NCBI GenBank assembly: GCA_028716245.1
Contig: JAQUQW010000002.1
Coordinates: 72,947 to 136,946 of the forward strand
From: Candidatus Omnitrophota bacterium
GTDB taxonomy: Bacteria; Omnitrophota; Gorgyraeia; Gygaellales; Profunditerraquicolaceae
Length of the DNA stretch: 64,000 nt
Reading direction: 5' to 3'
In this document: positions 46,236 to 64,000 of the stretch, one piece after another
Position numbering within the stretch: the first letter of the stretch is position 1
Layout: every line of letters begins with the position of its first letter
Notes under the pieces: generated by a model
What the model saw: only the letters and a program-made list of their open reading frames with translations
Database searches by the model: none
What the model was told of the DNA's origin: nothing
Made by a program: the position numbers and the translations under genes

Positions 46236-46299
46236 AAATAGGGACAGCGACCATTTTTTCTTGGTCGTTTAGATAAAAAATGGTCGCTGTCCCTATTTA
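46236..46299. repeat. REPIN-like element H (family 1) between epsilon and c subunit genes
   Basis: Arms are at 46236-46260 and 46275-46299. The spacer contains the inner mini-hairpin CGACCA...TGGTCG. Confidence 0.85.
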
Positions 46300-46532: not shown

Positions 46533-47246
46533 ATGCTTATCCAGCTTTTAATTCTCCAGTTCATTACTTTTATTGGAATTATTTTCCTTCTGCGTTTTTT
46601 ATTTGCCCGCCAGCTGAAATCAGCCCTTGAGAGGCTGAATATCCTGCACGAAGAGAATCTATCTAAAGAAGAGGAACTTAAAGAAGAGTTGCGCCGGGCT
46701 AAGGAAGAAAGCCAGGTGCAGATCCAGCAGGGTAAGGATGAAGCGGAACTGATTATTGAAGAGGCAGGCAAGGAGGCCCAGCGTATACGGATGAATATGG
46801 AAGTTCAGGCCAAACAGCAGGCAGAGAAAATTATTGCCGACAGCCACCTAGAAGTTGAAAAGCTTAAAGTAAGCGTAATTAAGGATGTTCAGGCGCAAAG
46901 CGTTGAGCTTGCCTCCCGGATGATTGCCGAACTGCTTACGGAAACCGATAAGATTGCCCTGCAGTATGAGTTTGCCAATGGTGTTATCGAAGAGATCTCC
47001 CGCCTGCCGAAAGAACAGTTTAATGTGCGGGGAAATCAAGTTAAGGTTGTTTCCAGCTTTCTGCTTTTAGACAGGCAAAAAAACGCGATTAAGCGCGTTT
47101 TAGCAGAGAAGATCGGCAAGGAGATAGAATTAAATGAGCAGATAGATCCCAAGCTTATCGGGGGCCTGACCATAGAGCTGGGCGGTATGGTTATCGACGG
47201 AACGCTAAAGAGCAAGCTCCAGAGAATCATTCCTCATCTTAAATAA
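46533..47246 (+). CDS. F-type ATPase b subunit fused to delta (OSCP) subunit
   Basis: N-terminal TM plus a long charged coiled coil (b-like). The C-terminal IDPKLIGGLTIELGGMVIDGTLKSKLQRI matches the conserved delta C-terminus. Confidence 0.7.
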   Translation: MLIQLLILQFITFIGIIFLLRFLFARQLKSALERLNILHEENLSKEEELKEELRRAKEESQVQIQQGKDEAELIIEEAGKEAQRIRMNMEVQAKQQAEKIIADSHLEVEKLKVSVIKDVQAQSVELASRMIAELLTETDKIALQYEFANGVIEEISRLPKEQFNVRGNQVKVVSSFLLLDRQKNAIKRVLAEKIGKEIELNEQIDPKLIGGLTIELGGMVIDGTLKSKLQRIIPHLK

Positions 47247-47250
47247 AAAA

Positions 47251-48708: not shown

Positions 48709-48768
48709 GGACAGCGACCATTTTTTTGGCCGCTACACTTAGAGAAAAATGGTCGCTGTCCCTATTTT
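48703..48768. repeat. REPIN-like element I (family 1) between alpha and gamma subunit genes
   Basis: Arms are at 48703-48727 and 48745-48768. The first arm contains the atpA stop codon. Confidence 0.85.
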
Positions 48769-48780
48769 ATTTATTATTAA

Positions 48781-49623
48781 ATGATACCCGTAGGAAAGTT
48801 AAAATCAAACCTGCAATTTAATAAAAACCTCGGGGATTTAATTGAGGTAATGAAGTTGGCGGCAACCCTGCAGTTTAACCAGTTCCGCCTGAAACAGGAG
48901 CCTTCCGAAGATTCTGTCCGGTTTTTGGAAGAGATCCTTGGCATATTGTTTTCTTCGGGGGTAAAAGATGGCTTGCTGCAGCCGAAGGAGAACCTGCCTT
49001 CGCTTTTGCTTTTGATAAGTTCCGACGAAGGATTTTTAGGCGAACTAAACTTTCTTCTGGTAAATAAGCTGCTTTCTGGCCGAAGGCAGCAGGATAGAAT
49101 CGTCTGCTCAGGCCAGCAGGGGGCCAATTATCTAAGAGAGATCCAGATAGATTTTTCTTTTTTTGATTCACCGGGCGAAAAAATAGAAACTCAGCCATTG
49201 GCCAAGATAAGGGATTATCTCTTACGCCAGTATTTTGACCGTAAGGTCGGCAGGATTTATGTCGTTTATTCGCGTTTCACCAACATTACCCAGCAGCAGG
49301 CAGAGTTTGAAATCCTGCTGCCTTTGCCCCTAACTCCCGGTGCTTCCGGAAAGGGGCTGGCGCATCTTTTGATTGAGCCTGATTCTCGAGAGGTAATCAA
49401 AGGATGGATTAAATGCTGGTTGGATTTTCGCCTTTATCAAATATTCTGGTCAAGCAAGCTGGCGGAGTTTGCCGCCCGGGTTATGCATTTAGAAGGCAGC
49501 GTGCAGGAATTAGGCAAGATCAACAGCCATTTGCGCATGGAGTATTTTAAATACCTGCACGGTTTATCTGATAAATCAGTGCGTGAATTGACTGCGGCCC
49601 GGCTAATCGGGAAAGAAAGATAA
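48781..49623 (+). CDS. atpG: F-type ATPase gamma subunit (divergent)
   Basis: 280 aa. The N-terminal helix GKLKSNLQFNKNLGDLIEVMKLAATLQF and the C-terminal helix are gamma-like. Confidence 0.65.
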   Translation: MIPVGKLKSNLQFNKNLGDLIEVMKLAATLQFNQFRLKQEPSEDSVRFLEEILGILFSSGVKDGLLQPKENLPSLLLLISSDEGFLGELNFLLVNKLLSGRRQQDRIVCSGQQGANYLREIQIDFSFFDSPGEKIETQPLAKIRDYLLRQYFDRKVGRIYVVYSRFTNITQQQAEFEILLPLPLTPGASGKGLAHLLIEPDSREVIKGWIKCWLDFRLYQIFWSSKLAEFAARVMHLEGSVQELGKINSHLRMEYFKYLHGLSDKSVRELTAARLIGKER

Positions 49624-51021
<1,398 letters not shown>

Positions 51022-51023
51022 AT

Positions 51024-52643
51024 ATGTCGACGAATAAATTATTAGGGGAGATGCTGGTAAAAAGAAATTGTATTACCCAGGAGCAGCTTGATCAGGTGCT
51101 TAAGGACTCTGTCTGCCAGGAGGATATGCTTGGGGCTATTCTGGTGAACAAGGGCCTGTTAAAAGAAGAGGATTTGCTCAAAGCGCTTTCTGAACAGTTC
51201 AATTTACCGTTTTTTGCCCGCTTAAAAGACGCCCATATCTCTACGGAGGCGATTAAAGCCGTGCCGGCAAAATTCGTCAAGCACTATGGTTTTATGCCGA
51301 TTAGTTTGGAGGGTGAGGCTTTGACTGTGGCGGTATTTAATCCCATGGATGTTTGGCTGGCGGAAAATATCAAATTGAACCTGGGGTTTAGGGTCAGCCG
51401 GATTTTAACTTCCCGCCGCGAGGTGGAGGCGGCGATACATAAATATTACGGGGCAGTGGCCGGAACCGTCGATAAGATCATGGAAGAGAAGATCGGCCAG
51501 GGCACAAAGTTAGCCAAGGATGAGAGCGTTGAAGATATTGAAAAAAACGCGGGCGAAGCATCGGTGATCGAGCTGGTTAACCAGATAATCAGCGAGGCAA
51601 TCAAGATGCGCGCCACGGATATCCATATTGAGATATACGTGGACAAGGTAGTCTTACGTTACCGTATTGACGGGGTCCTTCGGGAAATGAAGATGCCCCA
51701 GGACGCTTATTATATAGAGCCGGCGATTGTTTCGCGGATTAAAATTATGTGCCATTTGGATGTTGTCGAACACCGCATTCCGCAGGACGGCCGGGCAAAG
51801 GTGCGCTTGCTTGACGGGCAGGAAGTAGATTTAAGGGTTTCGATATTACAGGGGTATTTCGGAGAAAATGTGGTTATCCGGATCCTTCCTTCCCAGGTGT
51901 TGTTAGATTTAGATAAAATTGGGTTTGCCCCCGAAGATTTAAAAACGATCGTGAAGCTTTTGCAAAAACCGCACGGGATTATCTTAATTACCGGGCCTAC
52001 CGGAAGCGGTAAGACCACCACGCTTTATACCTGTTTAAGCCGCCTGAACCGTAAGGAGGTAAAAATTATCAGTATTGAAGACCCGGTTGAATACGCCATT
52101 GAAGGGATAACCCAGATCCATGTTAATCCCAAGGTGGGCTTAACTTTTGCCAGCGCCTTGAGAAGCGTCTTAAGGCATGACCCGGATATTATGATGATCG
52201 GTGAGATTCGTGATTCTGAGACCGCCGACCTGGCAATCCGCTCATCCCTTACCGGGCATTTGGTTTTCTCCACCTTGCATACTAATGATTCTGCCAGTGG
52301 TATTGCCCGGCTTATGGATATGGGTATTGAGCCCTACCTTTTAGCTTCTTCGGTTGAGGTAATTATCGCCCAGCGCCTGGTGCGCCTGCTCTGCCCGTTG
52401 TGTAAAGGCAAGGGGTGCGAATCTTGCAGTGAGACGGGATTTAAAGGGAGAAAGCCGATATATGAAATTATGCTTATCGATAATGAAATCCGCGGGATGA
52501 TTACCGAACATAAGAACGCCCAGGATATTAAGGCCAAAGCCAGGGAAAAAGGCATGCGCACGCTTATGGAGAATGGTATGCTTTTGGTCCAAGAAGGTTT
52601 AACGACTAAGGAAGAGATCATGCGCGTGGTGGAGTTGGAATAA
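51024..52643 (+). CDS. gspE: type II secretion / type IV pilus assembly ATPase GspE/PilB
   Basis: N-terminal T2SSE_N-like domain, Walker A GPTGSGKTT and the tetracysteine motif CPLCKGKGCESC. The ATG at 51024 follows a GGAGAG RBS. The ORF track start at 50997 overlaps atpD. Confidence 0.9.
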   Translation: MSTNKLLGEMLVKRNCITQEQLDQVLKDSVCQEDMLGAILVNKGLLKEEDLLKALSEQFNLPFFARLKDAHISTEAIKAVPAKFVKHYGFMPISLEGEALTVAVFNPMDVWLAENIKLNLGFRVSRILTSRREVEAAIHKYYGAVAGTVDKIMEEKIGQGTKLAKDESVEDIEKNAGEASVIELVNQIISEAIKMRATDIHIEIYVDKVVLRYRIDGVLREMKMPQDAYYIEPAIVSRIKIMCHLDVVEHRIPQDGRAKVRLLDGQEVDLRVSILQGYFGENVVIRILPSQVLLDLDKIGFAPEDLKTIVKLLQKPHGIILITGPTGSGKTTTLYTCLSRLNRKEVKIISIEDPVEYAIEGITQIHVNPKVGLTFASALRSVLRHDPDIMMIGEIRDSETADLAIRSSLTGHLVFSTLHTNDSASGIARLMDMGIEPYLLASSVEVIIAQRLVRLLCPLCKGKGCESCSETGFKGRKPIYEIMLIDNEIRGMITEHKNAQDIKAKAREKGMRTLMENGMLLVQEGLTTKEEIMRVVELE

Positions 52644-52644
52644 A

Positions 52645-53883
52645 ATGATATTTTTATATAAGGCTAAGAAAAACCTTAAGGAGGTTGTCGAGGGCAAAAT
52701 CGACGGGGGCAGTGTCGAGCAGGTGCTTGAAGATCTGCAGGCAAAAGGGCTTGTGCCGATTTCCGTCGAGCCGTTAATCGGCCCGCCTGTTTCCGCAGCG
52801 GCATCCGCAAAAACTTCCCCCAAACCCGAAACAGTTTCCAACCCAATCGGGAAATGGGGTTTAAAAAACCTAGTTTTGTTCACCCAGAAACTTTACAATC
52901 TGGTTAATTCCCGCGTAGAGTTACTTAGCGCCTTAAGGCTTTTAGAAAAGGACTGCCAAAATCAGACCGAAAAATTATTACTTTCCGATATCATAAAGAA
53001 TATTAAAGACGGTGTTTCATTTTCCAATTGCCTTAGCCGCTACCCGCAGTATTTCCCGCAATTTTACGTCAATATTGTCCACACCGGCGAGGCAACCGGC
53101 AAGCTCAAAGATTCCCTGATCCAACTTTTGGACTATCTGCGCCGGTTTGAAGATTTAAGGACCAAGGTAAAACAGGCGCTTGCTTATCCAATATTTATGA
53201 CTTTGGTTGGCGTAGGCACGATATTTGTAATGCTTACTTTTGTCCTGCCGAGGCTGGCCGGGATGTTTGAAGATTTTCAGGCGCAGCTGCCCTTACCCAC
53301 ACTTATTTTACTCAATATCGCGAATTTCCTTAAAGCTTATTGGGTATTTGTAATCGGATTTATTGTTATTCTTGTCTTTGCGTTTAAGGTCAACGGCGCA
53401 GGCAAGGAAAGTGTTTTTAGCCGCCTGAAATATCATATTCCCATTGCCAAAGATATTGTTTATAAACAGTCGGTGGCCAACTTTTCCAGAAGTTTATCCC
53501 TGCTTTTGCAAAGCGGAGTGAACCTGCTTTCCGCCTTGGCCGACGCCGGTCCGATAATCGGCAATCCGGTTTATGTCAGCCAACTTGAACAGGTGCGCCG
53601 TGATATCAGCCAAGGCATGCCTTTTTCAGACTCCTTGGCCAAATTCAAAATCTTCCCGGATTTTTTTGTGCAGATGATCCGCGTCGGCGAAGAAGGCGGC
53701 AGGCTGGACAGCGTACTGGCGGATATCGCCGAGTCTTATGAAAAAGAGATTGAGGCAGATTTAAAGGTCGTCAGTTCCCTTATTGAACCGGCGATAATTT
53801 TGGTCCTGGGCCTGGTGATCGGGGCGATGGTTATTGCCATGCTCCTGCCGATATTTAATATGAACAGCCTTGTCGGTGGCTAA
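52645..53883 (+). CDS. gspF: platform protein GspF/PilC
   Basis: 412 aa. The N-terminal FLYKAKKNLKEVVEGKIDGGSVEQVLEDLQAKGLVPISVEP is the typical GspF/PilC start, followed by two T2SSF domains with three TM segments. It carries a family-2 repeat in frame at 52825-52859. Confidence 0.85.
   Translation: MIFLYKAKKNLKEVVEGKIDGGSVEQVLEDLQAKGLVPISVEPLIGPPVSAAASAKTSPKPETVSNPIGKWGLKNLVLFTQKLYNLVNSRVELLSALRLLEKDCQNQTEKLLLSDIIKNIKDGVSFSNCLSRYPQYFPQFYVNIVHTGEATGKLKDSLIQLLDYLRRFEDLRTKVKQALAYPIFMTLVGVGTIFVMLTFVLPRLAGMFEDFQAQLPLPTLILLNIANFLKAYWVFVIGFIVILVFAFKVNGAGKESVFSRLKYHIPIAKDIVYKQSVANFSRSLSLLLQSGVNLLSALADAGPIIGNPVYVSQLEQVRRDISQGMPFSDSLAKFKIFPDFFVQMIRVGEEGGRLDSVLADIAESYEKEIEADLKVVSSLIEPAIILVLGLVIGAMVIAMLLPIFNMNSLVGG
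52825..52859. repeat. family-2 repeat unit (CGAAACAGTTTCC + CCCAATCGGG + GGAAATGGGG modules) embedded in frame in gspF
   Basis: Translated as PKPETVSNPIGKWG in the linker after the N-terminal cytoplasmic domain. The ORF stays open. Confidence 0.75.
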
Positions 53884-53884
53884 T

Positions 53885-53950
53885 AAATAGGGACAGCGAC
53901 CATTTTTTGTTCGCTATCCCTATTAAAAAAATGGTCGCTGTCCCTATTTA
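53885..53950. repeat. REPIN-like element J (family 1) directly after the gspF stop
   Basis: Arms are at 53885-53908 and 53925-53950. The spacer contains a partial extra arm copy (TCGCTATCCCTATT). Confidence 0.85.
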
Positions 53951-53961
53951 TTAAGATAATT

Positions 53962-55335
53962 ATGAGAACTAAAGTAATCATAGAGCTTGCGGAGTCCTGC
54001 CTTAAGGTTGTTATCGGCCGTAAGGTTGCGGTTGAGCCTCTGGCCAGCACTGAACCGGCGGTTATTTCCAACACTTTAAGCTTGATATTAAAACAAAATA
54101 AATGCGGCAAAAATTTTGATGTTTTCGTGGTGTTTAACCGCAATAAAATAACTGTGCGCCGCCTAGACCTGCCCTCCCAAGACCCCAAGGAACTCGAACA
54201 GATGCTGGGCCTCTGCCTCGTGCGCCAGATCCCCTATCATAAAGAAGAGGTTTGCTGGGCATATCAGAATTTAGGGTTTGACGGCACAAGCAACAGCCAC
54301 CTGATTTTGGCCATTGCCTTAAAAAATGTTTTTAAAAATGTGGTCAACGCTTTTATTCCCATAAATATCCTTCCGGAAGCCATATTAATGAGCTCGCAAG
54401 GTCTCCTGCATTATGTGGCTGAAGCATGCAAAGATAAATCTTTACTGCAGGGTTCATACCTGATCCTGGATATTGACGCAAACTATAGCGACCTGGTGCT
54501 GGTGGATGAGCGTAAGTTAGGCTCAAGCGTGGTGATACCGCAGGGGGCAGTCCAGTTAAAAAACGAGCAGGAAAAAGAAAAATTTGCCATTGAATTGAAG
54601 CAGGCGCTGGTTGCCTTGAATAACGAAATCCCCGATGCCAAATGCGACAGATTATTCTTAACCGGCGCCTCAGCAGCGTATCTTACCCTTATCGAGTCAG
54701 CCCTGGCCAGGGATTTTAATTTGAAGGCGCAGTATATCTCTTCCAAGGAGTACGATAATTTCATCTCCGGAGGCTTAAAGGATATTTCTTTATCCGCGGT
54801 GCTGGGGTTTAGTTCGCAGATAGCCAAAGATGATATTAAATTTGTTGTCCCCGAGCTGCAGGTAAAAAAAGAAATGAAATCCAAGGTGCAGCAACTGATG
54901 ATCCTGGGGGTGGTCCTGGTTTATATCCTGATTTCTTTAGGCGGAATTGCTTTGCTCAGGCTTATTCAGCAGCAGCTTTATTCAGCCAGCCTTAAGGAGA
55001 GGGTCGTTTCTTTAGGTAAAAAAACCAAGGACCTGGAGGATATTACCGAAAAATTAAAAATTGCCAAACAATACGCGGATCCCAAGTCTTCGGTATTATC
55101 TTCCCTGTATTCGCTAAATAGGTTGTGCCCGGAGAGCGTAACCATTACCAATTTTAATTGGGAACTTCAAAAGAGCCTGTCTTTTAGAGGATACGCTCAA
55201 CAGATACCCGATATTTTAACTTTTACCAATACTCTTAGTAATTCCGAATCTTTTAAGGGCGCGCAAAACCGTTACACCCGCAGGCGTAAATTAAAAGATA
55301 AAGATGTGGTTGATTTTGAGGTGGTCGTAAAATGA
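53962..55335 (+). CDS. PilM-PilN fusion (GspL-like inner-membrane assembly protein)
   Basis: 457 aa. The N-terminal ~300 aa is an actin-like PilM/GspL cytoplasmic domain. This is followed by a TM segment (LMILGVVLVYILISLGGIALL) and a PilN-like periplasmic domain. Confidence 0.6.
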   Translation: MRTKVIIELAESCLKVVIGRKVAVEPLASTEPAVISNTLSLILKQNKCGKNFDVFVVFNRNKITVRRLDLPSQDPKELEQMLGLCLVRQIPYHKEEVCWAYQNLGFDGTSNSHLILAIALKNVFKNVVNAFIPINILPEAILMSSQGLLHYVAEACKDKSLLQGSYLILDIDANYSDLVLVDERKLGSSVVIPQGAVQLKNEQEKEKFAIELKQALVALNNEIPDAKCDRLFLTGASAAYLTLIESALARDFNLKAQYISSKEYDNFISGGLKDISLSAVLGFSSQIAKDDIKFVVPELQVKKEMKSKVQQLMILGVVLVYILISLGGIALLRLIQQQLYSASLKERVVSLGKKTKDLEDITEKLKIAKQYADPKSSVLSSLYSLNRLCPESVTITNFNWELQKSLSFRGYAQQIPDILTFTNTLSNSESFKGAQNRYTRRRKLKDKDVVDFEVVVK

Positions 55336-55865
55336 GAAAACTAACCACCAAGGAAAAAATATTATCGCTATGTATCGGTTTATTGTTAGGGTTATTTGCG
55401 GTTAAAAGTTTTGTCCTGGGCCCGATATATGAAAAAACCGCTGTTTTTTCCGCAGAGATCGAACAGTCTAAAATGGCCATCCATAAATACCTGGCCTTGG
55501 AACATAATCGCCCGGGAATTCTTAAGGCGCAGAAACAAATCGAAGGTTATTCCAGCCTTCGGGGCTCTGATGAAGAGAAATCAGCGATGGTGATGAGCAA
55601 AGTTGAGGCTGAGGCCAGGAAATCCAAACTGCAAATATTAGATATGAATGTTATCGGTTCCACCAAGGTAAAAGGCGGAGTAGTGACGCTTTACCGCGTT
55701 TCCTTGCGCGCCGAAGGCCAGCTGAAAAATATTTTGGATTTTATTTCCGGTATTGAAGGGGCCAACATTTTGTTGCAAGTTGAGAAAATCACTTTGTCTG
55801 CCAAGGATGAAACTGGGAGCGTCTTAAAAATAGACACCACTATATTAGGAGTTTCATTTTCATAG
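55332..55865 (+). CDS. PilO/GspM-like inner-membrane protein
   Basis: 177 aa with an N-terminal TM, a coiled-coil region and a periplasmic domain. Its position between the PilMN-like gene and the pseudopilin gene supports the call. Confidence 0.55.
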   Translation: MRKLTTKEKILSLCIGLLLGLFAVKSFVLGPIYEKTAVFSAEIEQSKMAIHKYLALEHNRPGILKAQKQIEGYSSLRGSDEEKSAMVMSKVEAEARKSKLQILDMNVIGSTKVKGGVVTLYRVSLRAEGQLKNILDFISGIEGANILLQVEKITLSAKDETGSVLKIDTTILGVSFS

Positions 55866-55866
55866 A

Positions 55867-55921
55867 CCCCATTTCCCCTTCAGGTCCGAAACAGTTTCGA
55901 TTCTAAAGAGGAAATGGGGCC
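55867..55921. repeat. family-2 repeat: 10-bp stem CCCCATTTCC/GGAAATGGGG enclosing the palindrome CGAAACAGTTTCG
   Basis: Perfect inverted repeat at 55867-55876 and 55912-55921, with the palindromic core at 55888-55900. It lies between the pilO-like and gspG genes. Confidence 0.8.
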
Positions 55922-55943
55922 ATAAAGCTATAAGGAGATTATC

Positions 55944-56369
55944 ATGAAAAAAGTTTTCGCTCCGTTAGGAATAAGACAAGGATTCACTTTGATTGAGTTA
56001 ATACTGGTAGTAATTATTATCGGAATTTTGTCGGCGATGGTCGTGCCGCGGCTTGCCGGCCGCTCCGAGCAGGCGCGCGCGCAGGCGGCAAAAACAGATA
56101 TTAATTCCAGCATCCCTCTTGCCCTGGATCTTTATGAAATGGATATGGGCCATTATCCCGAATCCCTGGATTACCTGAGGACGCGTCCGGCAGGGGACGC
56201 CGATAACTGGCATGGGCCATACTTAAAGAAGAAGCCGGTGGATCCCTGGAATAAGCCTTATCTATATAAAGCCCCGGGCGACCATAATCAGGAGGGCTAT
56301 GATCTTTCTTCTGCCGGCAAGGATGGGCAACCCGGCACAGCAGATGATATTGTAAATTGGAGTGAATAA
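55944..56369 (+). CDS. gspG: major pseudopilin GspG (type II secretion)
   Basis: Prepilin leader with QGFTLIELILV cleavage/methylation motif and the GspG signature DPWNKPYLYKAPGDHNQEGYDLSSAGKDGQPGTADDI. Confidence 0.88.
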   Translation: MKKVFAPLGIRQGFTLIELILVVIIIGILSAMVVPRLAGRSEQARAQAAKTDINSSIPLALDLYEMDMGHYPESLDYLRTRPAGDADNWHGPYLKKKPVDPWNKPYLYKAPGDHNQEGYDLSSAGKDGQPGTADDIVNWSE

Positions 56370-56778
56370 GGTGAATAATTTGAAAGGGTTCGCCCCTTCG
56401 GGGTTCACTTTAGTTGAGGTGATGATTAGCGTGCTGATACTGGGGGTTGGCTTGACCCTGGTAGCCAATTCTTATATCGTTGCCTTAAGGGGAGTAAACT
56501 CTACGGCTAACAATATCGGAGCTTTGCGCCTGGGGCGAGAAAAGTTGGATGAACTTGAGCTCTTAAGTTTAAAAGACGGCTTATCCGCTTCCGTTACCCA
56601 GGATATTTTAAAATCTCCTGCTAAAAGTTATGATTATAAACAGGAAATCATTGAAATAACCCAGCCAAAAGATTTGGCTAAATTCCTTGTACAGGCCTGC
56701 CTGAGCCTTAGTTGGCAGGAACAGAATGCCACAAAAAATGTCACTTTTTCCACATACCTGCCCAGGCAAAAACAATAA
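56362..56778 (+). CDS. minor pseudopilin (GspH/GspI-like)
   Basis: Prepilin-type N-terminus GFTLVEVMISVLILGVGL, 138 aa. Confidence 0.65.
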   Translation: MNKVNNLKGFAPSGFTLVEVMISVLILGVGLTLVANSYIVALRGVNSTANNIGALRLGREKLDELELLSLKDGLSASVTQDILKSPAKSYDYKQEIIEITQPKDLAKFLVQACLSLSWQEQNATKNVTFSTYLPRQKQ

Positions 56779-57334
56779 ACTAAGCGCTTTTACTTTAGTG
56801 GAACTGCTTATTGCGGTTTCTATATTTTCCGTCGTCAGCATCGCGATTTATTCGACTTTTAGTTCAGGAACTTCTGTTTTAGGCCGGGTAAAGAATATTG
56901 ATTTTATCCAACAGAGGATTTTACTTAAAACCGAGAGATTTTCCAGGGAATTAAGAGAGCTTCCCGCCTGTAGAAAACAGCTGTTTTCGGGTACGAAAAC
57001 AAAGATTAGTTTCCCCGGGAATCCAGATTATATCCCCTGCCGCATAACTTATTATTTTGACAGTTCCTCTTTTTGTCTTATGCGCGTAGTAGATAAACTC
57101 AGCCAGATCATTACGCCCGAGGGGAAAGTGGATGCGCAATTTAAATCAAAACCGGCGGTTTTTTTATCCAAGATTAAAGAAGTAAAATTTAGCTATCTTA
57201 ATTTAGATCTGATTAAGAATGAATATAACTGGATAGATGAGTGGAGGCAGGATTATTTGCCTGTTGCTGTTAAATTGACTGTTACCAGCCAAACCCAAGA
57301 ATATGTCTCGACAGTATTTTTACCTAAAGCGTAA
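56726..57334 (+). CDS. minor pseudopilin (GspJ-like)
   Basis: Prepilin-like N-terminus KLSAFTLVELLIAVSIF (Ala rather than Gly at -1), ~200 aa. The likely start is the ATG at 56738. Confidence 0.55.
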   Translation: MPQKMSLFPHTCPGKNNKLSAFTLVELLIAVSIFSVVSIAIYSTFSSGTSVLGRVKNIDFIQQRILLKTERFSRELRELPACRKQLFSGTKTKISFPGNPDYIPCRITYYFDSSSFCLMRVVDKLSQIITPEGKVDAQFKSKPAVFLSKIKEVKFSYLNLDLIKNEYNWIDEWRQDYLPVAVKLTVTSQTQEYVSTVFLPKA

Positions 57335-58241
57335 GCCGCAAGGCAATAAGAAAGCAAGCATCCTGGTGCTCTGCCTCTGGGCAATAATGATCCTCTCCAT
57401 ATTGGGCATGGGCTTAACCGGATTGGTTTTTCAGGAGATACGGTTTGCCAGAACTTACCAACGATTAAGTTTCTCTTTGCCTGCCGCCAGAGGGGCGCTA
57501 AAAACAGTGTTCTACTTAAGAGAAAAAGACGCCACACCTACTTTTGATACCTTTGGGGAATTAGCCGAAGAAAATGAGATGGCTTTATGCGGGAACAACT
57601 CTTATAAATACTATTTTGCGGATAAAAGTAATTCGGCTGATAAAAGCCTGGCTGTTACCAGCCAGATTATCGATGAGAGCGCGTTGATTAATTTAAACAC
57701 CGCTTCTAAGGACGTGCTGATGCGGCTGCCGGGGATGGATGAAGAGTTGGCGGAAAAAACAGTTAATTCCGGGTTGCGCCCTTTTAGCTCAATCAATGAA
57801 GTGCTTTTAGTTGAAGGCATGAGCCGCGATAATTTTATACTTTTTAAGGATTTGGTTACTGTGTATGGGGCAGGAAAAATAAACATTAATACCGCAAGCA
57901 AGGCAGTACTTTTAGCTTTAGGTTTAGATGACCAGCTGGTAGAGGCGATTTTGCGTTTTCGGCAAGAGCACAAAATCATCAATCCTGATCCGGTAGCTAT
58001 TCCCCAAGTGCTGGGCTATGGTTTTTCCAGCACTGATAAGATACTTGATGATTTAAGGGCATTTACTTTTTTGAGTTTAAAGCAGGAGCAGGATCTCCTG
58101 GCGCTGGTTTCTATATTGGGTGTAAAATCAGAGTATCTGCGTTTTAATATTATCCCTTACTCCGGTAGCAGGCAGGGGCTGCACTATAGCATTGTTATCC
58201 ATCCCGCAAGTAAGAAGATTCTCTCCTGGAACGAACAATAA
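57303..58241 (+). CDS. GspK-like pseudopilin with helix-hairpin-helix motifs
   Basis: N-terminal TM (ILVLCLWAIMILSILGM) without a prepilin cleavage motif, and tandem HhH-like motifs (LINLNTASKDVLMRLPGM; ININTASKAVLLALGL) as in GspK. Confidence 0.65.
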   Translation: MSRQYFYLKRKPQGNKKASILVLCLWAIMILSILGMGLTGLVFQEIRFARTYQRLSFSLPAARGALKTVFYLREKDATPTFDTFGELAEENEMALCGNNSYKYYFADKSNSADKSLAVTSQIIDESALINLNTASKDVLMRLPGMDEELAEKTVNSGLRPFSSINEVLLVEGMSRDNFILFKDLVTVYGAGKININTASKAVLLALGLDDQLVEAILRFRQEHKIINPDPVAIPQVLGYGFSSTDKILDDLRAFTFLSLKQEQDLLALVSILGVKSEYLRFNIIPYSGSRQGLHYSIVIHPASKKILSWNEQ

Positions 58242-58246
58242 TTGAC

Positions 58247-58294
58247 TTGACAAAGAACCCTCTATTTACTAAAATTAAATAGTAAAATTTTACT
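58247..58294 (+). promoter_or_regulatory. candidate promoter (TTGACA, 16 nt, TAAAAT) followed by a perfect 16-bp palindrome TAGTAAAATTTTACTA (candidate operator)
   Basis: TTGACA at 58247-58252, TAAAAT at 58269-58274 and the palindrome at 58279-58294. It lies upstream of REPIN K and the small ORF / PanE / KS cluster. Confidence 0.3.
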
Positions 58295-58306: not shown

Positions 58307-58371
58307 TAAATAGGGACAGCGACCATTTTTTCTTGGTCGCGTAGATGAAAAAATGGTCGCTGTCCCTATTT
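58307..58371. repeat. REPIN-like element K (family 1)
   Basis: Arms are at 58307-58331 and 58347-58371, with the inner mini-hairpin CGACCA...TGGTCGC in the spacer. Confidence 0.85.
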
Positions 58372-58386: not shown

Positions 58387-58653
58387 ATGATTTGGGAAAC
58401 TAAGACTGAAAGTAAGTTCAAAACTCTGATTTCCAAAATACCCGTATTCCATCGGCGGATTACCGAATCAGTGGTCAGCCGTCAAGCCGAGAAAATCGCC
58501 GGTAATCGTAATTGCCGCCAGGTGGAAGATCAGGATGTAATTGCCGCTTTTTTCTCCGATGTCCCGTCGCCGTTCTACAGCATGATGGTCCGTCTTCTTG
58601 AGCAGAATGGTTTTGATTATAAAAAGTATGGTTTTCCAAAGGAGACTCGGTAA
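58387..58653 (+). CDS. small hypothetical protein (88 aa)
   Basis: ORF with an AGGT-rich RBS region. No recognised motif, and no DSL motif, so it is not an ACP. Its stop overlaps the next gene's start (ATGA). Confidence 0.4.
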   Translation: MIWETKTESKFKTLISKIPVFHRRITESVVSRQAEKIAGNRNCRQVEDQDVIAAFFSDVPSPFYSMMVRLLEQNGFDYKKYGFPKETR

Positions 58654-59657
58654 TGCGTATCGCCATCATTGGCGCCGGGGCCATCGGTTGTTTAGTTGCC
58701 GCTTATCTTAAGGAAAAGGGCGAAGAGGTAACCTTAGTCGGCCGCAGCGGGGCGGTCAAGGTGATCAGAGAAAACGGCATCGTTGTTTCGGGGGTCAGGG
58801 GCAATTTTCTGGCGCATATCGGTATTTCCGACACCCTAAATTATGTTCCGGATTTAGCCATCTTGGCTACTAAAACACAGGATATCAATTCTGTTTTGCA
58901 GGACAACTCCCATTTACTGCAGAATTCCCTCTTATTAACTGTGCAAAACGGCGTACGTGCGGATAACTTGGTTGCCCGATACGTCCCTGCGGAAAAGGTC
59001 ATTTCCAGTATAGTTATGTTCGGGGCAACTAGCTTAGAGCCGGGCAAAGTAGTGCATAATTTTGAAGGCAGCTGGGTATTGGGGAGCTTCTTTAATCCCA
59101 ATCCTTCCGAGTCCTTACTTTCCGTAAGCCTGGTTTTAGATAAGGCATTTCCGACAATAATAAGCAAAGACATAAAAGGGATGAAATATTTAAAGATTTT
59201 TGTCAATGCCAACAACTGCCTGCCGGCAATCATCGGCAAGAGTATGCAGGAGGTCTTTAGCGACCTGGCGATCAGCCGGATCAGTATTGCCATCTGGAGA
59301 GAAGCTTTCAGGATTATCGATTATATCGGGATAGATTTGGTTTCTCTCCCCGGATTCCCGCTGGAAAACCTTACCAAGCTTACGGCTATGCCCAGCGAGT
59401 TGGCAGCCCAGGTTTTTTCGGAGCGCATGAAAAACCTGAGCAAAGAACCGTTATACGGTTCGATATTGCAGAGTATAATGCGCGGTAACCTTTCGGAGAT
59501 TGATTATATTAATGGCGAATTTGTGCGTCTGGCCGAAGAAAATAATATGCCGGCGCCTTTAAATAAGATTTTAGTGGAGATGGTGCATCAGGTGGAAAAG
59601 AATAACCGGTTTTTCAGCAAAGAAGATTTGATCCAAAAGACCAGGGAACTAATTTAG
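58653..59657 (+). CDS. 2-dehydropantoate 2-reductase family (PanE/ApbA) NAD(P)-dependent oxidoreductase
   Basis: Rossmann N-terminus MRIAIIGAGAIGCLVAAYL, 334 aa, and an ApbA-like C-terminal helical domain. Confidence 0.7.
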   Translation: MRIAIIGAGAIGCLVAAYLKEKGEEVTLVGRSGAVKVIRENGIVVSGVRGNFLAHIGISDTLNYVPDLAILATKTQDINSVLQDNSHLLQNSLLLTVQNGVRADNLVARYVPAEKVISSIVMFGATSLEPGKVVHNFEGSWVLGSFFNPNPSESLLSVSLVLDKAFPTIISKDIKGMKYLKIFVNANNCLPAIIGKSMQEVFSDLAISRISIAIWREAFRIIDYIGIDLVSLPGFPLENLTKLTAMPSELAAQVFSERMKNLSKEPLYGSILQSIMRGNLSEIDYINGEFVRLAEENNMPAPLNKILVEMVHQVEKNNRFFSKEDLIQKTRELI

Positions 59658-59661
59658 AAAA

Positions 59662-60258
59662 ATGAAAGAAGTTAAAACCCCTTTTCCCCGCTTGAAACTT
59701 ACCGTAACGCAAGTTTTAGGAGATTGTTACCACGGTTATAAGAGCGGCGATGAAATCATTTTAGAAGATTTTACCCATGCCCCGGTCCATTTCTGTTTGG
59801 GGCTGGCGCACGCGCTTTTTCCGGTAATCTATGCTTTAAGTTTTGGGGCAAAATTCGGGTTCCGCGATAACCAGCGTTCTTTGCTGGTGACCTGTCCCGA
59901 CGGAGGAAAGCTGGAATTTAAAGCCGAAATTCTGGATAAGCAGGGCAAGCTTGAGGTTGTTCCAAGAGACCCCCAACATAAAGGGCCAAATCCTAAGAAG
60001 ATGATTATTGAGGTAGCTGAGGCAAAAGGAAAATGCGCCTTTGGATATAAAGTCGGGGATAAATGGGAAACGCAGGGTTTAAAATGTATCCCGGGTTTTT
60101 GCGGGGCGGCATTCCACACGGCATTCCCGGCTTTGTTTGCTTTAAATTTTGGAGCCAAGTTTTTCTTTGTGCCGGATCCGGATTCAATTGATACGGTTAC
60201 CTGTCCGGACGGGGGCAATATTGTTTTTAAGGTTACCAGAATTGGGGAGAAGAAATAA
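59662..60258 (+). CDS. tandem two-repeat Cys/His-containing protein (each ~95-aa half has GxC..GYKxGD ... FC..xH..FP..FGAKF ... VTCPDGG..FK)
   Basis: Internal duplication is visible by eye. Each half has three Cys in conserved positions. I recall an uncharacterised TIGR04076-like family with a CPDGG motif, but I cannot verify that assignment. Confidence 0.5.
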   Translation: MKEVKTPFPRLKLTVTQVLGDCYHGYKSGDEIILEDFTHAPVHFCLGLAHALFPVIYALSFGAKFGFRDNQRSLLVTCPDGGKLEFKAEILDKQGKLEVVPRDPQHKGPNPKKMIIEVAEAKGKCAFGYKVGDKWETQGLKCIPGFCGAAFHTAFPALFALNFGAKFFFVPDPDSIDTVTCPDGGNIVFKVTRIGEKK

Positions 60259-60262
60259 TTTT

Positions 60263-61525
60263 ATGGCTAAACGCAGAGTAGTAATAACCGGTATAGGAGT
60301 AATCTCGCCTAATGGCATCGGTAAACATAACGCCTGGGAAGGTTTTTCCAGCGGAAAAAGCGGGGTGCGTTTAGTTGACGGCTTTGATGTTTCTGTTTTT
60401 AATACCAAGATTGCCGCCGAAGTCAGGGATTTTGACCCTTTTAAATTGGGTCTGAATCACCAGGAGGCCATGCGCATGGATCGCTATGTGCAGTTTGGAG
60501 TGACTGCCGGCAAGATGGCAATAGAGGACAGTAAATTAGATTTTTCCCAAGAAGATACCCGGCGTATCGGGGTTTGTTTAGCCAATGCCATCTGCGGGAC
60601 AAAATATATGGAAGAGGAGTTTGCTTTAGTTACCGAGGACGGGAAAAAACCGATCAACCCGGCGCAGGTTAGGCCCGATCTCTATGACGCAGCGATGTTT
60701 AACACTCCTTCGATAGAAATCAGCGCGCGTTTTGGCTTAAAAGGGATTTGTAACACTATTTCTACGGGATGCACTGCCGGCACAGACTCATTGGGTTTTG
60801 GTTTAGAAAGCATTCAGGATGGGGAGCAGGATGTAATGATCTGCGGAGCTGCGGAAGCCCCGCTTACCCCGATTACCTTCGGCGCTTTTGATGTGGTCAA
60901 TGTTTTATCCGTGCGTAATGATGAGCCGCAGAAAGCCTCGCGTCCTTTTGATAATAAGCGTGACGGATTTGTGCTCGGAGAAGGAGCGGGAATCTTAATT
61001 CTTGAAGAATTAAATCACGCCTTAAAACGCAATGCCCCGATTTATTGCGAAGTTTTAGGTTTTGGCACCAGCTGTAATGCCTTTCACATGACCGACCTGC
61101 CTTCTGACGGACGGGCGATGGAAACCTGCATCAGTTTGGCCTTAAAAGATGCGCAGGTCAAGCCCGGCGAGATTGATTATATCAACGCGCACGGCTCAAG
61201 CACGCGGATGAACGATATCTTTGAGACCAATGCTTACAAGGCAATTTTTGGCCAGTATGCTTATAAGCTGCCGATCAGTTCGCTTAAATCCATGATCGGC
61301 CATCCTCTGGCCGCGGCAAACGCCATTGAGATGACCATGGTCTCGATGATTTTTGAGAAAAATATCCTTCCTCCGACGATAAATCAGGATGAAAAAGATC
61401 CGCAGTGCGATTTGTATTATATTCCCAACCAGGCAATCCAGAAAAAAGTTAACACAATTATAAAAACCAGCAGCGGTTTTTCGGGGATACATTCTTCGCT
61501 TATTTTAAGAAGGTTCGGTGGATAA
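60263..61525 (+). CDS. beta-ketoacyl-ACP synthase (KAS I/II family, FabF-like)
   Basis: Active-site Cys in ISTGCTAGTDSLG and the two His in NAHGSSTRMND and KSMIGHPLAAANA. A GGGGAGAAG RBS sits before the ATG at 60263. The ORF track start at 60149 overlaps the upstream gene. Confidence 0.88.
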   Translation: MAKRRVVITGIGVISPNGIGKHNAWEGFSSGKSGVRLVDGFDVSVFNTKIAAEVRDFDPFKLGLNHQEAMRMDRYVQFGVTAGKMAIEDSKLDFSQEDTRRIGVCLANAICGTKYMEEEFALVTEDGKKPINPAQVRPDLYDAAMFNTPSIEISARFGLKGICNTISTGCTAGTDSLGFGLESIQDGEQDVMICGAAEAPLTPITFGAFDVVNVLSVRNDEPQKASRPFDNKRDGFVLGEGAGILILEELNHALKRNAPIYCEVLGFGTSCNAFHMTDLPSDGRAMETCISLALKDAQVKPGEIDYINAHGSSTRMNDIFETNAYKAIFGQYAYKLPISSLKSMIGHPLAAANAIEMTMVSMIFEKNILPPTINQDEKDPQCDLYYIPNQAIQKKVNTIIKTSSGFSGIHSSLILRRFGG

Positions 61526-62754
61526 TGGAAAAAATCGCAATTACCGGTATTGGAGTTGTCAGTCCTTCGGGTATCGGAAAGCGGCAGTTTTGGGCAAACC
61601 TTAAAAGCGGTCGTTCATTTATTAAAGAGATTACCCGTTTTGACGCTTCACTATACGCTGCGCATATCGCCGGACAGATTGATGATTTGGAAAAATACAG
61701 CCATATCTCCGAAAGGCTTTTAAAAAAAATCGATGCTTTTTCGCATATGGCGCTGGTTGCTTCGGAGATGGCCCTGCAGGATGCCGGGATCGATATTAAA
61801 AATGAGGATCCCAATCTTGTGGGGATTTTTTTGGGCAACGCTATCGGCGGCTGGCTCTATGCCGAAACTGAATTAAGGGATTTATATTTAGAGGGCCGGG
61901 AAGGTGTTTCACCTTATATGGCCTCTGCCTGGTTTCCCGCCGCTCCCCAGGGACAGGTCTCCATTTATTATGGAATAAAAGGTTTTAGTAAGACCGTGGT
62001 CAGCGACCGGGCCAGTTCTTCGATGGCTTTAGGGTACGCCCGGAAAGTTTTAGCGAAAAATAAACTGAATATGATTTTGGCAGGCGGTATGGAGGCTCCG
62101 GTTACCCCTTATGCCTTATTATGCTGTAATACCTATGGGGCGCTATCCAAAAATAATCATAATCCCCAGGGGGCGTACCGGCCATTTGATAAACAGCGCA
62201 ATGGTTTTGTAATCGGCGAGGGCGCCGGAATTGTAGTCATGGAAAGTGTCCGGCGCGCCCAAAAAAGAGGCGCAAATATCTTGGGGGCAATCTGCGGATA
62301 CGGCACGACTTGCGACGGGGTGGACAGGATCAATTGTGCCAGCGACGGAAAAGAGCTGGCGCGGGCAATTAATATGGCGCTTAGTGACGCCAAGGTAAAT
62401 CCCGAAGAGATCGGTTATATTAGTTTAGATGGTTTAGCAGTTGATCTCTGGGATAATTCTGAAATCAAAGCTTTAAAGATGGTTTTCGGGGATAATTTAA
62501 AGAATATTCCGTTGAGTTGCCCCAAATCCATGTTTGGAAATTTGCTTGGAGCATCGGGTGTGCTGGATATGATTATCGCGCTTTTAACTATGAAGCATAG
62601 TTTAGTCGCCCCGACTTTAAATTTAGAGGTTCCGGCTTTAAATAATTTAAATTATGTGGCCAAGAAAGCCAGGGAATATAAAGTAAACAAGTCTTTGATC
62701 ATCTCGCGCGGCCGCGGCGGGATTAATGCGGTTTTAGTAGTTGAAAAAAACTAG
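61525..62754 (+). CDS. ketosynthase-like protein lacking the Cys-His-His triad (chain-length-factor-like partner)
   Basis: KS fold (ITGIGVVSP..., GGMEAPVTP), but the active-site Cys position reads SDRASSSMA, the first His position reads ISLDGLAV and the second reads KSMFGNLLGASG. Its start overlaps the upstream KS stop (ATAATGG). Confidence 0.75.
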   Translation: MEKIAITGIGVVSPSGIGKRQFWANLKSGRSFIKEITRFDASLYAAHIAGQIDDLEKYSHISERLLKKIDAFSHMALVASEMALQDAGIDIKNEDPNLVGIFLGNAIGGWLYAETELRDLYLEGREGVSPYMASAWFPAAPQGQVSIYYGIKGFSKTVVSDRASSSMALGYARKVLAKNKLNMILAGGMEAPVTPYALLCCNTYGALSKNNHNPQGAYRPFDKQRNGFVIGEGAGIVVMESVRRAQKRGANILGAICGYGTTCDGVDRINCASDGKELARAINMALSDAKVNPEEIGYISLDGLAVDLWDNSEIKALKMVFGDNLKNIPLSCPKSMFGNLLGASGVLDMIIALLTMKHSLVAPTLNLEVPALNNLNYVAKKAREYKVNKSLIISRGRGGINAVLVVEKN

Positions 62755-62840
62755 AAACAGTTTCCAAGCTAATCGGGAAACAGTTTCTGCTTTAACTTGG
62801 AAACAGTTTCGAAGTTAAAGAGGAAATGGGGGTAAAGGGA
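62754..62840. repeat. composite family-2 repeat cluster (three GAAACAGTTTC cores plus AATCGGG and GGAAATGGGG modules)
   Basis: AGAAACAGTTTCCAAGCTAATCGGGAAACAGTTTCTGCTTTAACTTGGAAACAGTTTCGAAGTTAAAGAGGAAATGGGGG. It includes the hairpin TTAACTTGGAAACAGTTTCGAAGTTAA. Confidence 0.8.
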
Positions 62841-62847
62841 GGGTAAA

Positions 62848-64000
62848 ATGAAGATATTATTTGTTATGCCCAGGGTCGGCGCATGGGCAACGCACGGCAT
62901 ACACCGGTCACCAAACCAGCTTTACGCGCACTGGGCTGCGTATGTGCGGGAGAGGGGTTATGAAGATGTCGCGGTCATCGACGGAAGAGCACTGGAAATA
63001 CCCATGGACCAGCTGGTGGAGCAGGTAAAGGCAAAAAACCCGGATGTCGTGGTTATGGGCGAGCAATTGCACGGTTATGGCGGCTACGGCGTATTACGGC
63101 ATTTTAAAGAGGCAGCGATCAACATTAAAAAAGCGCTGCCTAAAACAAAAATAATTCTCGGCGGGTTATGGTATTCGGCGATGCCGGTGCCGACATTAGA
63201 AGAGAACCCTGCGGTTGACTTTGTGGTTATGGGGGAAGAGGAATCTTTTGGAGATTTGATCGAAGCCATCGATAAAAAGAAAAATTTTAAGGATGTTGGC
63301 GGGGTAACTTCGCGGGTTGACGGACAAATCGTCATGGGCCCGCATAAGCCGCTGATGGAAGATCTAGACAAGCTTCCTTTACCGGCCTATGACTTATTTC
63401 CGATGGATAAATATGTCGGCCACACTTATTGGAAACCATTTGTGGATATGGTTACTTCGCGGGGCTGCCCTTCAGCATGCACCTTTTGTTATGAATGGGA
63501 CCAGTTTGATCCGCGTTCGCCTTCGGATTTCTTGAAATGGCGGGCTAAATCTCCGGAAAGAGTTATGGAAGAGATGAATCTTCTGCATAGAAAATACGGG
63601 GTTAAAGTCGCGGTTATCCAGGACGATAATTTTAATGTCGACCCCAAAAGAGTGCAGAAATTTTGTGAACTTAAAAAAGCATCGAATAATCCAATTAAAT
63701 GGGTATCTTTGGGCCGGGCTATTGATTGGGTTAATTGCGAATCGATCTTGCCCCTGATGAAAGAAAATGGTTTATTCATGGGTGTTTTTGGCATCGAGGT
63801 GACAACTCAGTCAGAGCTCAAGCGAATCGCTAAAGGTATTACTATCGACCAGATTAAGAAAACCATCGAGATCTTGCGTAAAAATGATATCGCGATTGTC
63901 GCGGATATCATGATGGGTTTTGATTATGATACCGAGGCCATTGTTAAGCAGCGTTTTGAGTTTACGGATCAGGTTGATCCGGATATCCTTTGGGTAGGCT
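62848..64000 (+). CDS. B12-binding domain radical SAM protein (3' end outside window)
   Basis: ATG at 62848 after a GGGAGGG RBS. The N-terminal B12-binding-like Rossmann region (KILFVMP..VVVMGEQ...KIILGG) is followed by TSRGCPSACTFC (CxxxCxxC). The frame is open to the end of the window. It is not in the ORF track because no stop codon falls in the window. Confidence 0.8.
   Translation, partial: MKILFVMPRVGAWATHGIHRSPNQLYAHWAAYVRERGYEDVAVIDGRALEIPMDQLVEQVKAKNPDVVVMGEQLHGYGGYGVLRHFKEAAINIKKALPKTKIILGGLWYSAMPVPTLEENPAVDFVVMGEEESFGDLIEAIDKKKNFKDVGGVTSRVDGQIVMGPHKPLMEDLDKLPLPAYDLFPMDKYVGHTYWKPFVDMVTSRGCPSACTFCYEWDQFDPRSPSDFLKWRAKSPERVMEEMNLLHRKYGVKVAVIQDDNFNVDPKRVQKFCELKKASNNPIKWVSLGRAIDWVNCESILPLMKENGLFMGVFGIEVTTQSELKRIAKGITIDQIKKTIEILRKNDIAIVADIMMGFDYDTEAIVKQRFEFTDQVDPDILWVG

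Follow-up and report, generated by a model that had tools for sequence, protein, structure and literature searches.

The 64,000-nucleotide stretch of Candidatus Omnitrophota bacterium DNA analysed here (contig JAQUQW010000002.1, positions 72,947 to 136,946; hereafter the window) ends in six genes on the + strand (58387-64000) which are likely to form the 5' half of a type II, that is iterative and dissociated, aromatic polyketide synthase (PKS) cluster of the "ancestral" kind known from non-actinomycete anaerobes. The cluster appears akin to those of the clostrubin, dendrubin and AQ-256 type and not to a ladderane, aryl-polyene or fatty acid synthase (FAS) locus. A first-pass annotation, made by reading the DNA without database searches, had described a cryptic biosynthetic block of six genes at this place. 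All six were recovered as described, and Pfam and NCBIfam confirmed each assignment. The genes, which are closely packed with almost no spacing, are the following:

58387-58653, +, small open reading frame (ORF) of 88 aa, first gene of the conserved block
58653-59657, +, PanE/ApbA-family NAD(P)H-dependent reductase of 334 aa, with ApbA and ApbA_C domains
59662-60258, +, tandem TIGR04076 (CPDGG) protein of 198 aa, with two domains
60263-61525, +, ketosynthase KS1 (predicted KS-alpha) of 420 aa, with Cys171/His311/His347 and the motif STGCTAGTD
61525-62754, +, ketosynthase-fold protein KS2 (predicted KS-beta or chain-length factor, CLF) of 409 aa, with Arg163/Asp303/Asn343
62848-64000, +, B12-binding radical S-adenosylmethionine enzyme (B12-rSAM), N-terminal 384 of about 486 aa, the gene being cut by the window end

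Stop and start codons overlap as TAATG at two junctions (small ORF/PanE and KS1/KS2), and gaps of 4 nt separate the PanE and TIGR04076 genes and the TIGR04076 and KS1 genes. The true start of KS1 is the ATG at 60263; a TTG at 60149, which would overlap the preceding gene, is not the start.

One genome per GTDB species was scanned for relatives of the block, which were found in at least 127 species, and 80 loci were fetched for comparison. Strong purifying selection acts on the whole block. Between the window and a relative, the ratio of non-synonymous to synonymous substitution rates (dN/dS) is 0.02-0.10 for all six genes, with synonymous sites near saturation. Since the low values extend to KS2 (0.02-0.06) and to the small ORF (0.05-0.10), the catalytically "dead" KS2 and the small ORF are functional genes and not chance ORFs. 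For the small ORF Pfam gives sub-threshold, weak matches alone (DUF2621 and PCP_red); it was detected in 64 of the loci, and a 35% identical homologue is found in a related cluster (L085).

The coupling of a ketosynthase with an intact Cys-His-His triad to a partner of the same fold that lacks it, which had been read from the letters, was borne out. In an alignment with FabF structures, AntD and the actinorhodin KS-alpha, the triad of KS1 corresponds to Cys171, His311 and His347, and the same columns of KS2 are occupied by Arg163, Asp303 and Asn343; all three catalytic residues are thus lost from KS2, which keeps the conserved Lys. These three substitutions are invariant in 80 orthologues.

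Among solved structures KS1 is closest to AntD (6SMO_B, 383 bits), from the AQ-256 PKS of Photorhabdus (AntD/AntE/AntF; PDB 6SMO), and to the actinorhodin KS-alpha (372 bits), every FabF scoring 352 bits or less. It also carries the STGC(T/A)xGxD motif and a 5-residue insertion, both of which are common to AntD and the actinorhodin KS-alpha. Against the FabF equivalog TIGR03150 (cutoff 494 bits) KS1 obtains 461 bits and KS2 376 bits, both below the cutoff, and no fab genes were found in the window or its flanks. In a neighbour-joining tree of 24 sequences, including three FabFs (100 bootstraps), KS1 and its orthologues group with AntD, the actinorhodin KS-alpha and the KS of a Clostridium beijerinckii PKS at 100% bootstrap, apart from the FabFs. 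KS1 shares with FabF the fold, the triad and high profile scores and differs from it in its score below the equivalog cutoff, its dead partner, its PKS cyclase neighbours and its separate position in the tree. The earlier opinion that this is unlikely to be a housekeeping FabF holds, as neither of the outcomes named there as refuting it, a tight grouping of KS1 with FabF beside fab genes or a triad kept in KS2, was observed.

KS2 falls among the CLFs of the same tree, as sister to the CLF of a Deltaproteobacteria metagenome-assembled genome (MAG) at 100% support. This is also its nearest relative outside the phylum (57% identity, same Arg/Asp/Asn), followed by a MAG protein (47%), the CLF of C. 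beijerinckii and C. puniceum (44%) and that of Ktedonobacter (40%). Arg at the position of the lost Cys is common to the CLFs of the C. beijerinckii PKS, Ktedonobacter and the Deltaproteobacteria MAG. Canonical actinomycete CLFs reportedly carry Gln at this position, in work credited to Bisang et al. in 1999 and Keatinge-Clay et al. in 2004. As all of these CLFs have Arg, the Gln hallmark fails for the whole non-actinomycete group and not for this locus alone, and with Arg in place of Gln the initiation of the chain may differ. On sequence grounds, we take KS1 for the catalytic KS of a type II PKS (KS-alpha) and KS2 for its predicted CLF (KS-beta) partner.

Accessory enzymes and continuation of the cluster

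The PanE-like protein scored 106 bits for ApbA and 66 bits for ApbA_C, and 175 bits for TIGR00745 (cutoff 141). It matches no equivalog-level PanE model in NCBIfam, and among solved structures ketopantoate reductases come nearest to it (98 bits). In two other cluster types a homologue adjoins the genes for TIGR04076 and KS proteins, with 54% identity in the Deltaproteobacteria MAG (L082) and 40% in loci L084/L085. Because of this association with the clusters, the enzyme probably serves in tailoring or as a keto reductase, and not as a housekeeping ketopantoate reductase.

The TIGR04076 protein (95 bits, cutoff 33) consists of two domains of about 90 aa, seen as an internal repeat, and both end in VTCPDGG (C78-G82 and C181-G185). 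Three Cys and one His are invariant in each domain. No solved relative was found by sequence and no fold match in the PDB; an AlphaFold2 model (predicted local distance difference test, pLDDT, of 75) gives a beta-beta-alpha-beta-beta unit, repeated. Two such domains are present in each of four related PKS loci, arranged in tandem, as two single ORFs, or fused to an acyl carrier protein (ACP). The natural TIGR04076-ACP fusion occurs in C. beijerinckii (L086, 11260-11787), in C. puniceum and in one Bacillota MAG, and was found nowhere else. Databases label it either "TIGR04076 family protein" or "acyl carrier protein". The fusion to ACP in the Clostridium locus suggests that the TIGR04076 domains work on a carrier-bound intermediate.

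The B12-rSAM contains a B12-binding domain (PF02310, 42 bits, cutoff 32) and a Radical_SAM domain (PF04055, 71 bits), with the CxxxCxxC motif CPSACTFC at residues 207-214. Its orthologues are 77-100% identical in 67 loci, and a 51% homologue is found in the Deltaproteobacteria MAG cluster. The two best-scoring curated families for a full-length orthologue are BchE, the anaerobic Mg-protoporphyrin monomethyl ester cyclase (TIGR02026, 200 bits, cutoff 481), and HpnJ (TIGR03471, 152 bits, cutoff 578), although both scores are below the cutoffs. With these the protein shares the N-terminal B12-binding domain and the radical SAM core; it differs in that they act in tetrapyrrole and hopanoid pathways, whereas here the gene stands in a PKS context. 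The ladderane-type model TIGR04072 gives 67 bits against a cutoff of 360. The nearest solved structure is AprD4 (62 bits), which has a B12-binding domain yet is not known to bind cobalamin. Scoring below every curated family cutoff, the protein belongs to no characterised family; its domains mark it as a class B-type (predicted cobalamin-binding) radical SAM enzyme, BchE/HpnJ-like and a member of neither family.

The genes past the window end were read from a syntenic relative with 94-96% identity (L001) and from the 79 other loci. In L001 the rSAM gene (486 aa) is followed by genes encoding an ACP (79 aa), a PF04199 "cyclase", an SRPBCC polyketide cyclase and a short-chain dehydrogenase/reductase (SDR), and these by a secreted CBM11-like protein, a 137-aa protein and an Amidohydro_2 enzyme. 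The first-pass annotation had seen no gene for an ACP, ketoreductase, dehydratase or acyltransferase in the window, which is correct, the ACP and SDR genes lying just past its end in the relatives. The search for an ACP nearby, which had been proposed as a check, found the protein directly after the rSAM in L001 and 65 loci; it is a PP-binding protein with the DS motif, which scores below the AcpP cutoffs. The PF04199 (OxyN-type) cyclase obtains 98 bits, and the TcmN-type SRPBCC protein 29 and 24 bits for Polyketide_cyc2 and Polyketide_cyc, just over the cutoffs. The best solved matches of the Amidohydro_2 enzyme are LigW (acting on 5-carboxyvanillate), gamma-resorcylate decarboxylase and ACMSD. 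The CBM11-like protein, which has a signal peptide (L001, 15265-15876), was detectable in about 34 of the about 56 loci that span its position, and its gene may be an unrelated insertion in the PKS block.

Behind the cluster, on the same strand, come genes for a nucleoside phosphorylase (PNP_UDP_1), an MtnA-like ribose-1-phosphate isomerase (TIGR00524, 204 bits, cutoff 186) and a class II aldolase. This trio is present in 12 of the 12 informative Omnitrophota loci, that is those with more than 4 kb downstream of the cluster, and it follows the cluster of the Deltaproteobacteria MAG as well (L001, 18172-20985; L082, 18447-21242). The dihydroxyacetone phosphate (DHAP) shunt disposes of 5'-deoxyadenosine, an inhibitory by-product of radical SAM enzymes (PMC10986504, PMC8102628). 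The trio looks like such a shunt for 5'-deoxyadenosine or methylthioadenosine, and by this analogy a functional link to the rSAM may exist. An aldehyde dehydrogenase gene follows the trio in L001, and some genomes have fluoride-resistance genes (CrcB/DUF190) inserted after the PKS block and ahead of the trio.

Related clusters and competing readings

The best 120 matches of the homologue searches were all Omnitrophota orthologues. Distant relatives were obtained from a search of 50%-identity representatives, in which giant multi-KS type I PKSs crowd the listing, and from name look-ups. KS-CLF relatives in P0304 (L087) and in a Chitinivibrionales genome (P0364, L088) were set aside, as they represent different cluster types.

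The cluster of the Deltaproteobacteria MAG (L082, GCA_964580455.1) has nine genes in common with the Omnitrophota block: those for the B12-rSAM (51% identity), PanE-like protein (54%), tandem TIGR04076 protein (57%), KS (65%), CLF (57%), ACP, PF04199 cyclase (45%), SRPBCC cyclase (54%) and Amidohydro_2 enzyme (49%). Its rSAM gene is placed upstream, whereas in Omnitrophota it lies between the CLF and ACP genes. The Deltaproteobacteria cluster is without the SDR, CBM11 and 137-aa genes, and carries in addition two tungsten-type aldehyde:ferredoxin oxidoreductases, MMPL and MFS transporters and an amine-oxidase-like flavoprotein. The cluster type of L084/L085 contains the PanE-like protein, two single-domain TIGR04076 ORFs, KS, CLF, ACP, both cyclases, the Amidohydro_2 enzyme and flavoproteins.

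The type II PKS locus of C. beijerinckii and C. puniceum (L086) encodes a KS, a CLF, the TIGR04076-ACP fusion, a PF04199 cyclase, an SRPBCC protein, a second TIGR04076 ORF, an Amidohydro_2 enzyme and an ACP. The likeness to the Omnitrophota block extends to the KS (46%), the CLF (44%, with Arg at the lost Cys), the PF04199 cyclase (45%), the SRPBCC protein (37%) and the Amidohydro_2 enzyme (36%), to the presence of two TIGR04076 domains and an ACP, and to the strictly anaerobic host. The two species are the two known clostrubin producers, and from species and content we infer that L086 is the clostrubin clr cluster. The differences are also clear: a B12-rSAM and a PanE-like reductase are missing from L086, an ACP is joined to one of its TIGR04076 domains, and its CLF retains the second His. 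It carries phosphopantetheinyl transferases, a KAS III, hydrolases, DUF362/DUF169 proteins and regulators, and it is found in a few strains, in contrast to the lineage-wide Omnitrophota block.

The KS-CLF-ACP-TcmN-OxyN architecture is considered a hallmark of ancestral non-actinomycete type II PKSs (PMC7693217), and the Omnitrophota block fits it, as do the AQ-256 and dendrubin (den) clusters. The latter two, compared by description only, differ in having duplicated TcmN cyclases and known products. In the den cluster there are no methyltransferase or oxidase/oxygenase genes, and rSAM, PanE and TIGR04076 proteins are not mentioned there; terminal decarboxylation of the dendrubins is described, and the enzymes of anthrone methylation and oxygenation are unexplained and lie outside the cluster (PMC7693217). 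With the actinorhodin minimal PKS (PDB 1TQY) the block shares the heterodimer logic and the adjacency of the two genes (KS1 372 bits, KS2 248 bits), whereas tailoring is O2-dependent there and the enzyme types in the Omnitrophota block are anaerobic. Notable in the block, as a type II PKS of the anaerobe kind, are its lineage-wide conservation, the B12-rSAM, the PanE-type reductase, the paired TIGR04076 domains, the Arg-type CLF and the linked gene trio that resembles 5'-deoxyadenosine salvage.

Of three analogies drawn in the first-pass annotation, that with type II PKSs stood, given the ACP, the two cyclases and the decarboxylase homologue in the relatives, and those with ladderane and aryl-polyene pathways fell. 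The latter two belong to wider alternatives that have to be weighed. In one of these the locus would serve an unusual lipid pathway, with a FabF-type KS pair producing a ladderane-like or rSAM-modified fatty acid, or a housekeeping FAS. The high scores of both proteins against FabF models (461 and 376 bits) and the FabFs that are the best solved matches of KS2 would agree with it, as would the B12-rSAM within the operon, a feature of proposed ladderane clusters, the MMPL/RND exporter and DUF1329 protein of the Deltaproteobacteria MAG, and the extreme conservation, which would suit a primary function. We nevertheless consider it extremely unlikely. KS1 remains below the FabF cutoff and groups with the KS-alphas, the ladderane model TIGR04072 gives the rSAM 67 of the 360 bits required, and the ACP falls below the AcpP cutoffs. 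Moreover, the block of 13 genes lacks a FabZ/FabA dehydratase, an enoyl reductase, FabH and FabD, and includes two families of polyketide cyclases and a homologue of aromatic-acid decarboxylases.

A highly reducing type II PKS-like system of the aryl polyene, ishigamide or cispentacin type, which would make a polyene or a small carbocycle, also uses KS/CLF heterodimers with CLFs that lack the canonical Gln. The reductase-rich context (PanE and SDR) would be in agreement, as would weak NCBIfam matches to the cispentacin protein AmcF (168 and 141 bits, cutoff 325) and to the ACP AmcB. This reading is very improbable in our judgement, as no genes were found in the block for the dehydratases needed for polyene formation, nor, as regards aryl polyenes, for a second ACP, a thioesterase, acyl- and glycosyltransferases or LolA-like/MMPL lipid export. 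The SRPBCC and PF04199 cyclases in the block also argue against it, and KS1 is nearer to AntD and the actinorhodin KS-alpha (383 and 372 bits) than to the ishigamide KS 6kxd (241 bits).

Several points weigh against the assignment to an aromatic type II PKS itself. The window breaks off within the rSAM gene, and for this locus the ACP, both cyclases, the SDR and the decarboxylase homologue are deduced from L001 and the 79 other loci. The best solved matches of KS2 are FabFs (295 bits), with the actinorhodin KS-beta lower (248 bits), and KS2 has Arg163 where actinomycete CLFs carry the canonical Gln. The neighbour-joining tree is small, with few reference sequences and poorly supported deep CLF nodes. 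Isatin hydrolases, as weak matches, are the sole solved relatives of the PF04199 protein. The SDR is of a generic FabG-like type, with no ActIII-type ketoreductase among its matches at E <= 1e-25, and is missing from the Deltaproteobacteria and L084 versions of the cluster. The rSAM fails all curated cutoffs, so sequence alone does not tell its function. Lastly, L086 is identified with the clr cluster from species and content and not by accession.

Flanking genes and dispersed repeats

The features in front of the block and the repeats within the window are the following:

58247-58275, +, promoter-like site TTGACA-17-TAAAAT, matching 11 of 12 consensus positions (consensus match alone)
58309-58370, no strand, perfect hairpin copy of a dispersed element resembling repetitive extragenic palindromes (REP-like), arms AATAGGGACAGCGACCAT, downstream of the promoter-like site and ahead of the first gene
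16777-16838, 20335-20399, 25416-25477, 26214-26275, 43437-43549, 46237-46297, 48704-48766 and 53886-53948, further copies of the AATAGGGACAGCGACCAT hairpin
26862, 44293 and 45089, single arms of the AATAGGGACAGCGACCAT element
62753-62810, no strand, three copies of the palindrome GGAAACAGTTTC, filling the KS2-rSAM spacer
11275, 11823, 22489, 22552, 26954, 52827 and 55887, other positions of GGAAACAGTTTC

The promoter-like site is placed right after the stop of an unrelated upstream operon, and judging from its consensus match it is the probable start of the cluster operon. The upstream operon resembles those of type II secretion systems (T2SS) and type IV pili (50997-58241; GspE/PilB, GspF, PilM/N-like proteins, four pseudopilins and a GspK-like protein) and is preceded by ATP-synthase-like genes (46533-51021), including an F1 beta-like ORF (49627-51021). 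Synteny of these T2SS- and ATP-synthase-like genes with the cluster is kept in the closest relatives only; because the secretion genes are not syntenic in most relatives, the conserved block begins at 58387. A scan of the window with Rfam gave no riboswitch or other RNA family.

The hairpin arms AATAGGGACAGCGACCAT and ATGGTCGCTGTCCCTATT match 22 times in the window, where 0.03 matches would be expected by chance, and every copy examined is intergenic. The hairpin is a genome-wide REP-like element and is not specific to the cluster. Spurious ORFs run through its copies, and peptides such as NRDSDHFF and MVAVPIY turn up repeatedly among the listed ORFs. The palindrome GGAAACAGTTTC has 14 matches against 0.37 expected. 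Its insert in the KS2-rSAM spacer is missing from L001, L007, L009 and L018 and is present with four copies in L013. A role of these repeats as an operator of the rSAM gene was considered and rejected, since they belong to a dispersed, variably present REP-like element; the copies in the spacer are probably a variable insertion of this element and not a cluster-specific operator.

Elsewhere in the window, a single ORF of 5207 aa extends over 26980-42603 (+), where the G+C content rises to about 50%, compared with 44% in the remainder. Omnitrophota have been reported to encode giant proteins. At 24555-25359 two small overlapping ORFs of 127 and 143 aa were noted, the first with a nucleotidyltransferase-like GS...R...SD.D motif; judged by eye, the pair may be a toxin-antitoxin system of the MNT/HEPN type.

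Distribution, proposed pathway and possible role

All 80 of the fetched loci come from Omnitrophota, some of them auto-labelled Planctomycetales. A Candidatus Omnitrophica MAG encodes a protein with 100% identity to KS2, and more than 120 database clusters have at least 83% identity to KS2; among the matches listed, all those that bear a source name are Omnitrophota. The named MAGs among the loci belong to the GTDB class Koll11 (Velamenicoccia), orders Gygaellales (Profunditerraquicolaceae) and Ghiorseimicrobiales; the genome with the window was assigned to Koll11 as well. The genomes of these MAGs measure 1.2-1.9 Mb and are predicted to be those of anaerobic acetogens or syntrophs (PMC10066038); according to the Omnitrophota paper, menaquinone genes occur in only some Velamenicoccia. 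A 2023 catalogue had included Ca. Omnitrophica among the phyla with KS-CLF hits, with no further analysis there (PMC10132072).

The comparative genomics suggested in the first-pass annotation showed that, wherever the contig is long enough, the 13-gene block is strictly collinear across the 80 species (tblastn of the 13 proteins against all loci). Identities across the loci are 76-96% for KS1, 76-94% for KS2, 77-100% for the rSAM and 74-96% for the tandem TIGR04076 protein. These data bear on a further alternative, in which the locus is an ordinary antibiotic or pigment cluster, acquired horizontally and without a special role, and the phosphorylase, MtnA-like and aldolase genes are housekeeping neighbours by chance. 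In its favour, the closest cluster outside the phylum, that of the Deltaproteobacteria MAG (KS 65%, CLF 57%), is followed by the same three genes, which fits transfer as one block; the characterised relatives, clostrubin and the dendrubins, are antibiotics or pigments (PMC7693217), and Velamenicoccia are suspected predators or parasites (PMC10066038). Against it are the strict collinearity at 76-96% protein identity in at least 80 species of at least two orders, with synonymous sites near saturation, and the retention of the block in genomes of 1.2-1.9 Mb. Such collinearity and retention are atypical for dispensable secondary-metabolite clusters, although an ecological role, such as that of a toxin, is still compatible with them. 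We regard this alternative as possible, if somewhat unlikely.

For the aromatic type II PKS we propose the following pathway. On the ACP of the cluster, the KS1/KS2 heterodimer would build a poly-beta-keto chain by condensing malonyl units, and the tunnel of KS2 would determine how long the chain becomes. As no acyltransferase is encoded in the cluster, malonyl loading would be carried out by the FabD of the cell or by self-malonylation. The SRPBCC and PF04199 cyclases would then fold and aromatise the chain to a bi- or tricyclic phenol or an anthrone-type acid, a keto group may be reduced by the SDR, the PanE-like reductase or both, and the Amidohydro_2 enzyme would remove the terminal carboxylate non-oxidatively, as has been proposed for dendrubins and pyxidicyclines. 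The B12-rSAM could provide O2-independent tailoring, either by methylating an unactivated carbon or by an oxidation or ring closure of the anaerobic kind, and the adjacent phosphorylase, MtnA-like isomerase and class II aldolase would dispose of the 5'-deoxyadenosine that it releases. The two TIGR04076 Cys/His domains, which probably form a metal-binding pseudo-heterodimer, would work upon the intermediate carried by the ACP or together with it.

Because conservation is near-invariant in these streamlined genomes, it is tempting to speculate that the product, for instance a phenol or quinone with redox activity, a protectant or a predation factor, has a physiological role and is less likely to be a dispensable antibiotic. 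A stronger form of this idea, which we find improbable, is that the block and the 5'-deoxyadenosine salvage genes constitute a vertically inherited, quasi-essential Koll11 pathway to a redox-active aromatic made without O2, such as a quinone/quinol carrier or a protectant, in which the rSAM would replace oxygenases and SAM methyltransferases and the paired TIGR04076 domains would be an ACP-associated metal-binding subunit of ancestral type II PKSs that had not been recognised before.

Type II PKSs are usually seen as antibiotic machinery of actinomycetes, and the handful characterised from anaerobes are regarded as ancestral. Here a minimal PKS would be paired with O2-independent tailoring by a B12-rSAM, a PanE-type reductase and a non-oxidative decarboxylase. 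The paired TIGR04076 domains, as a recurrent component, offer a tangible starting point for finding out how early type II PKSs functioned, and the Arg-type CLF allows chain initiation without the canonical Gln to be tested. The fixation of such a cluster across a lineage of ultra-small, uncultured and streamlined anaerobes would favour a role in physiology or ecology over that of an accessory antibiotic.

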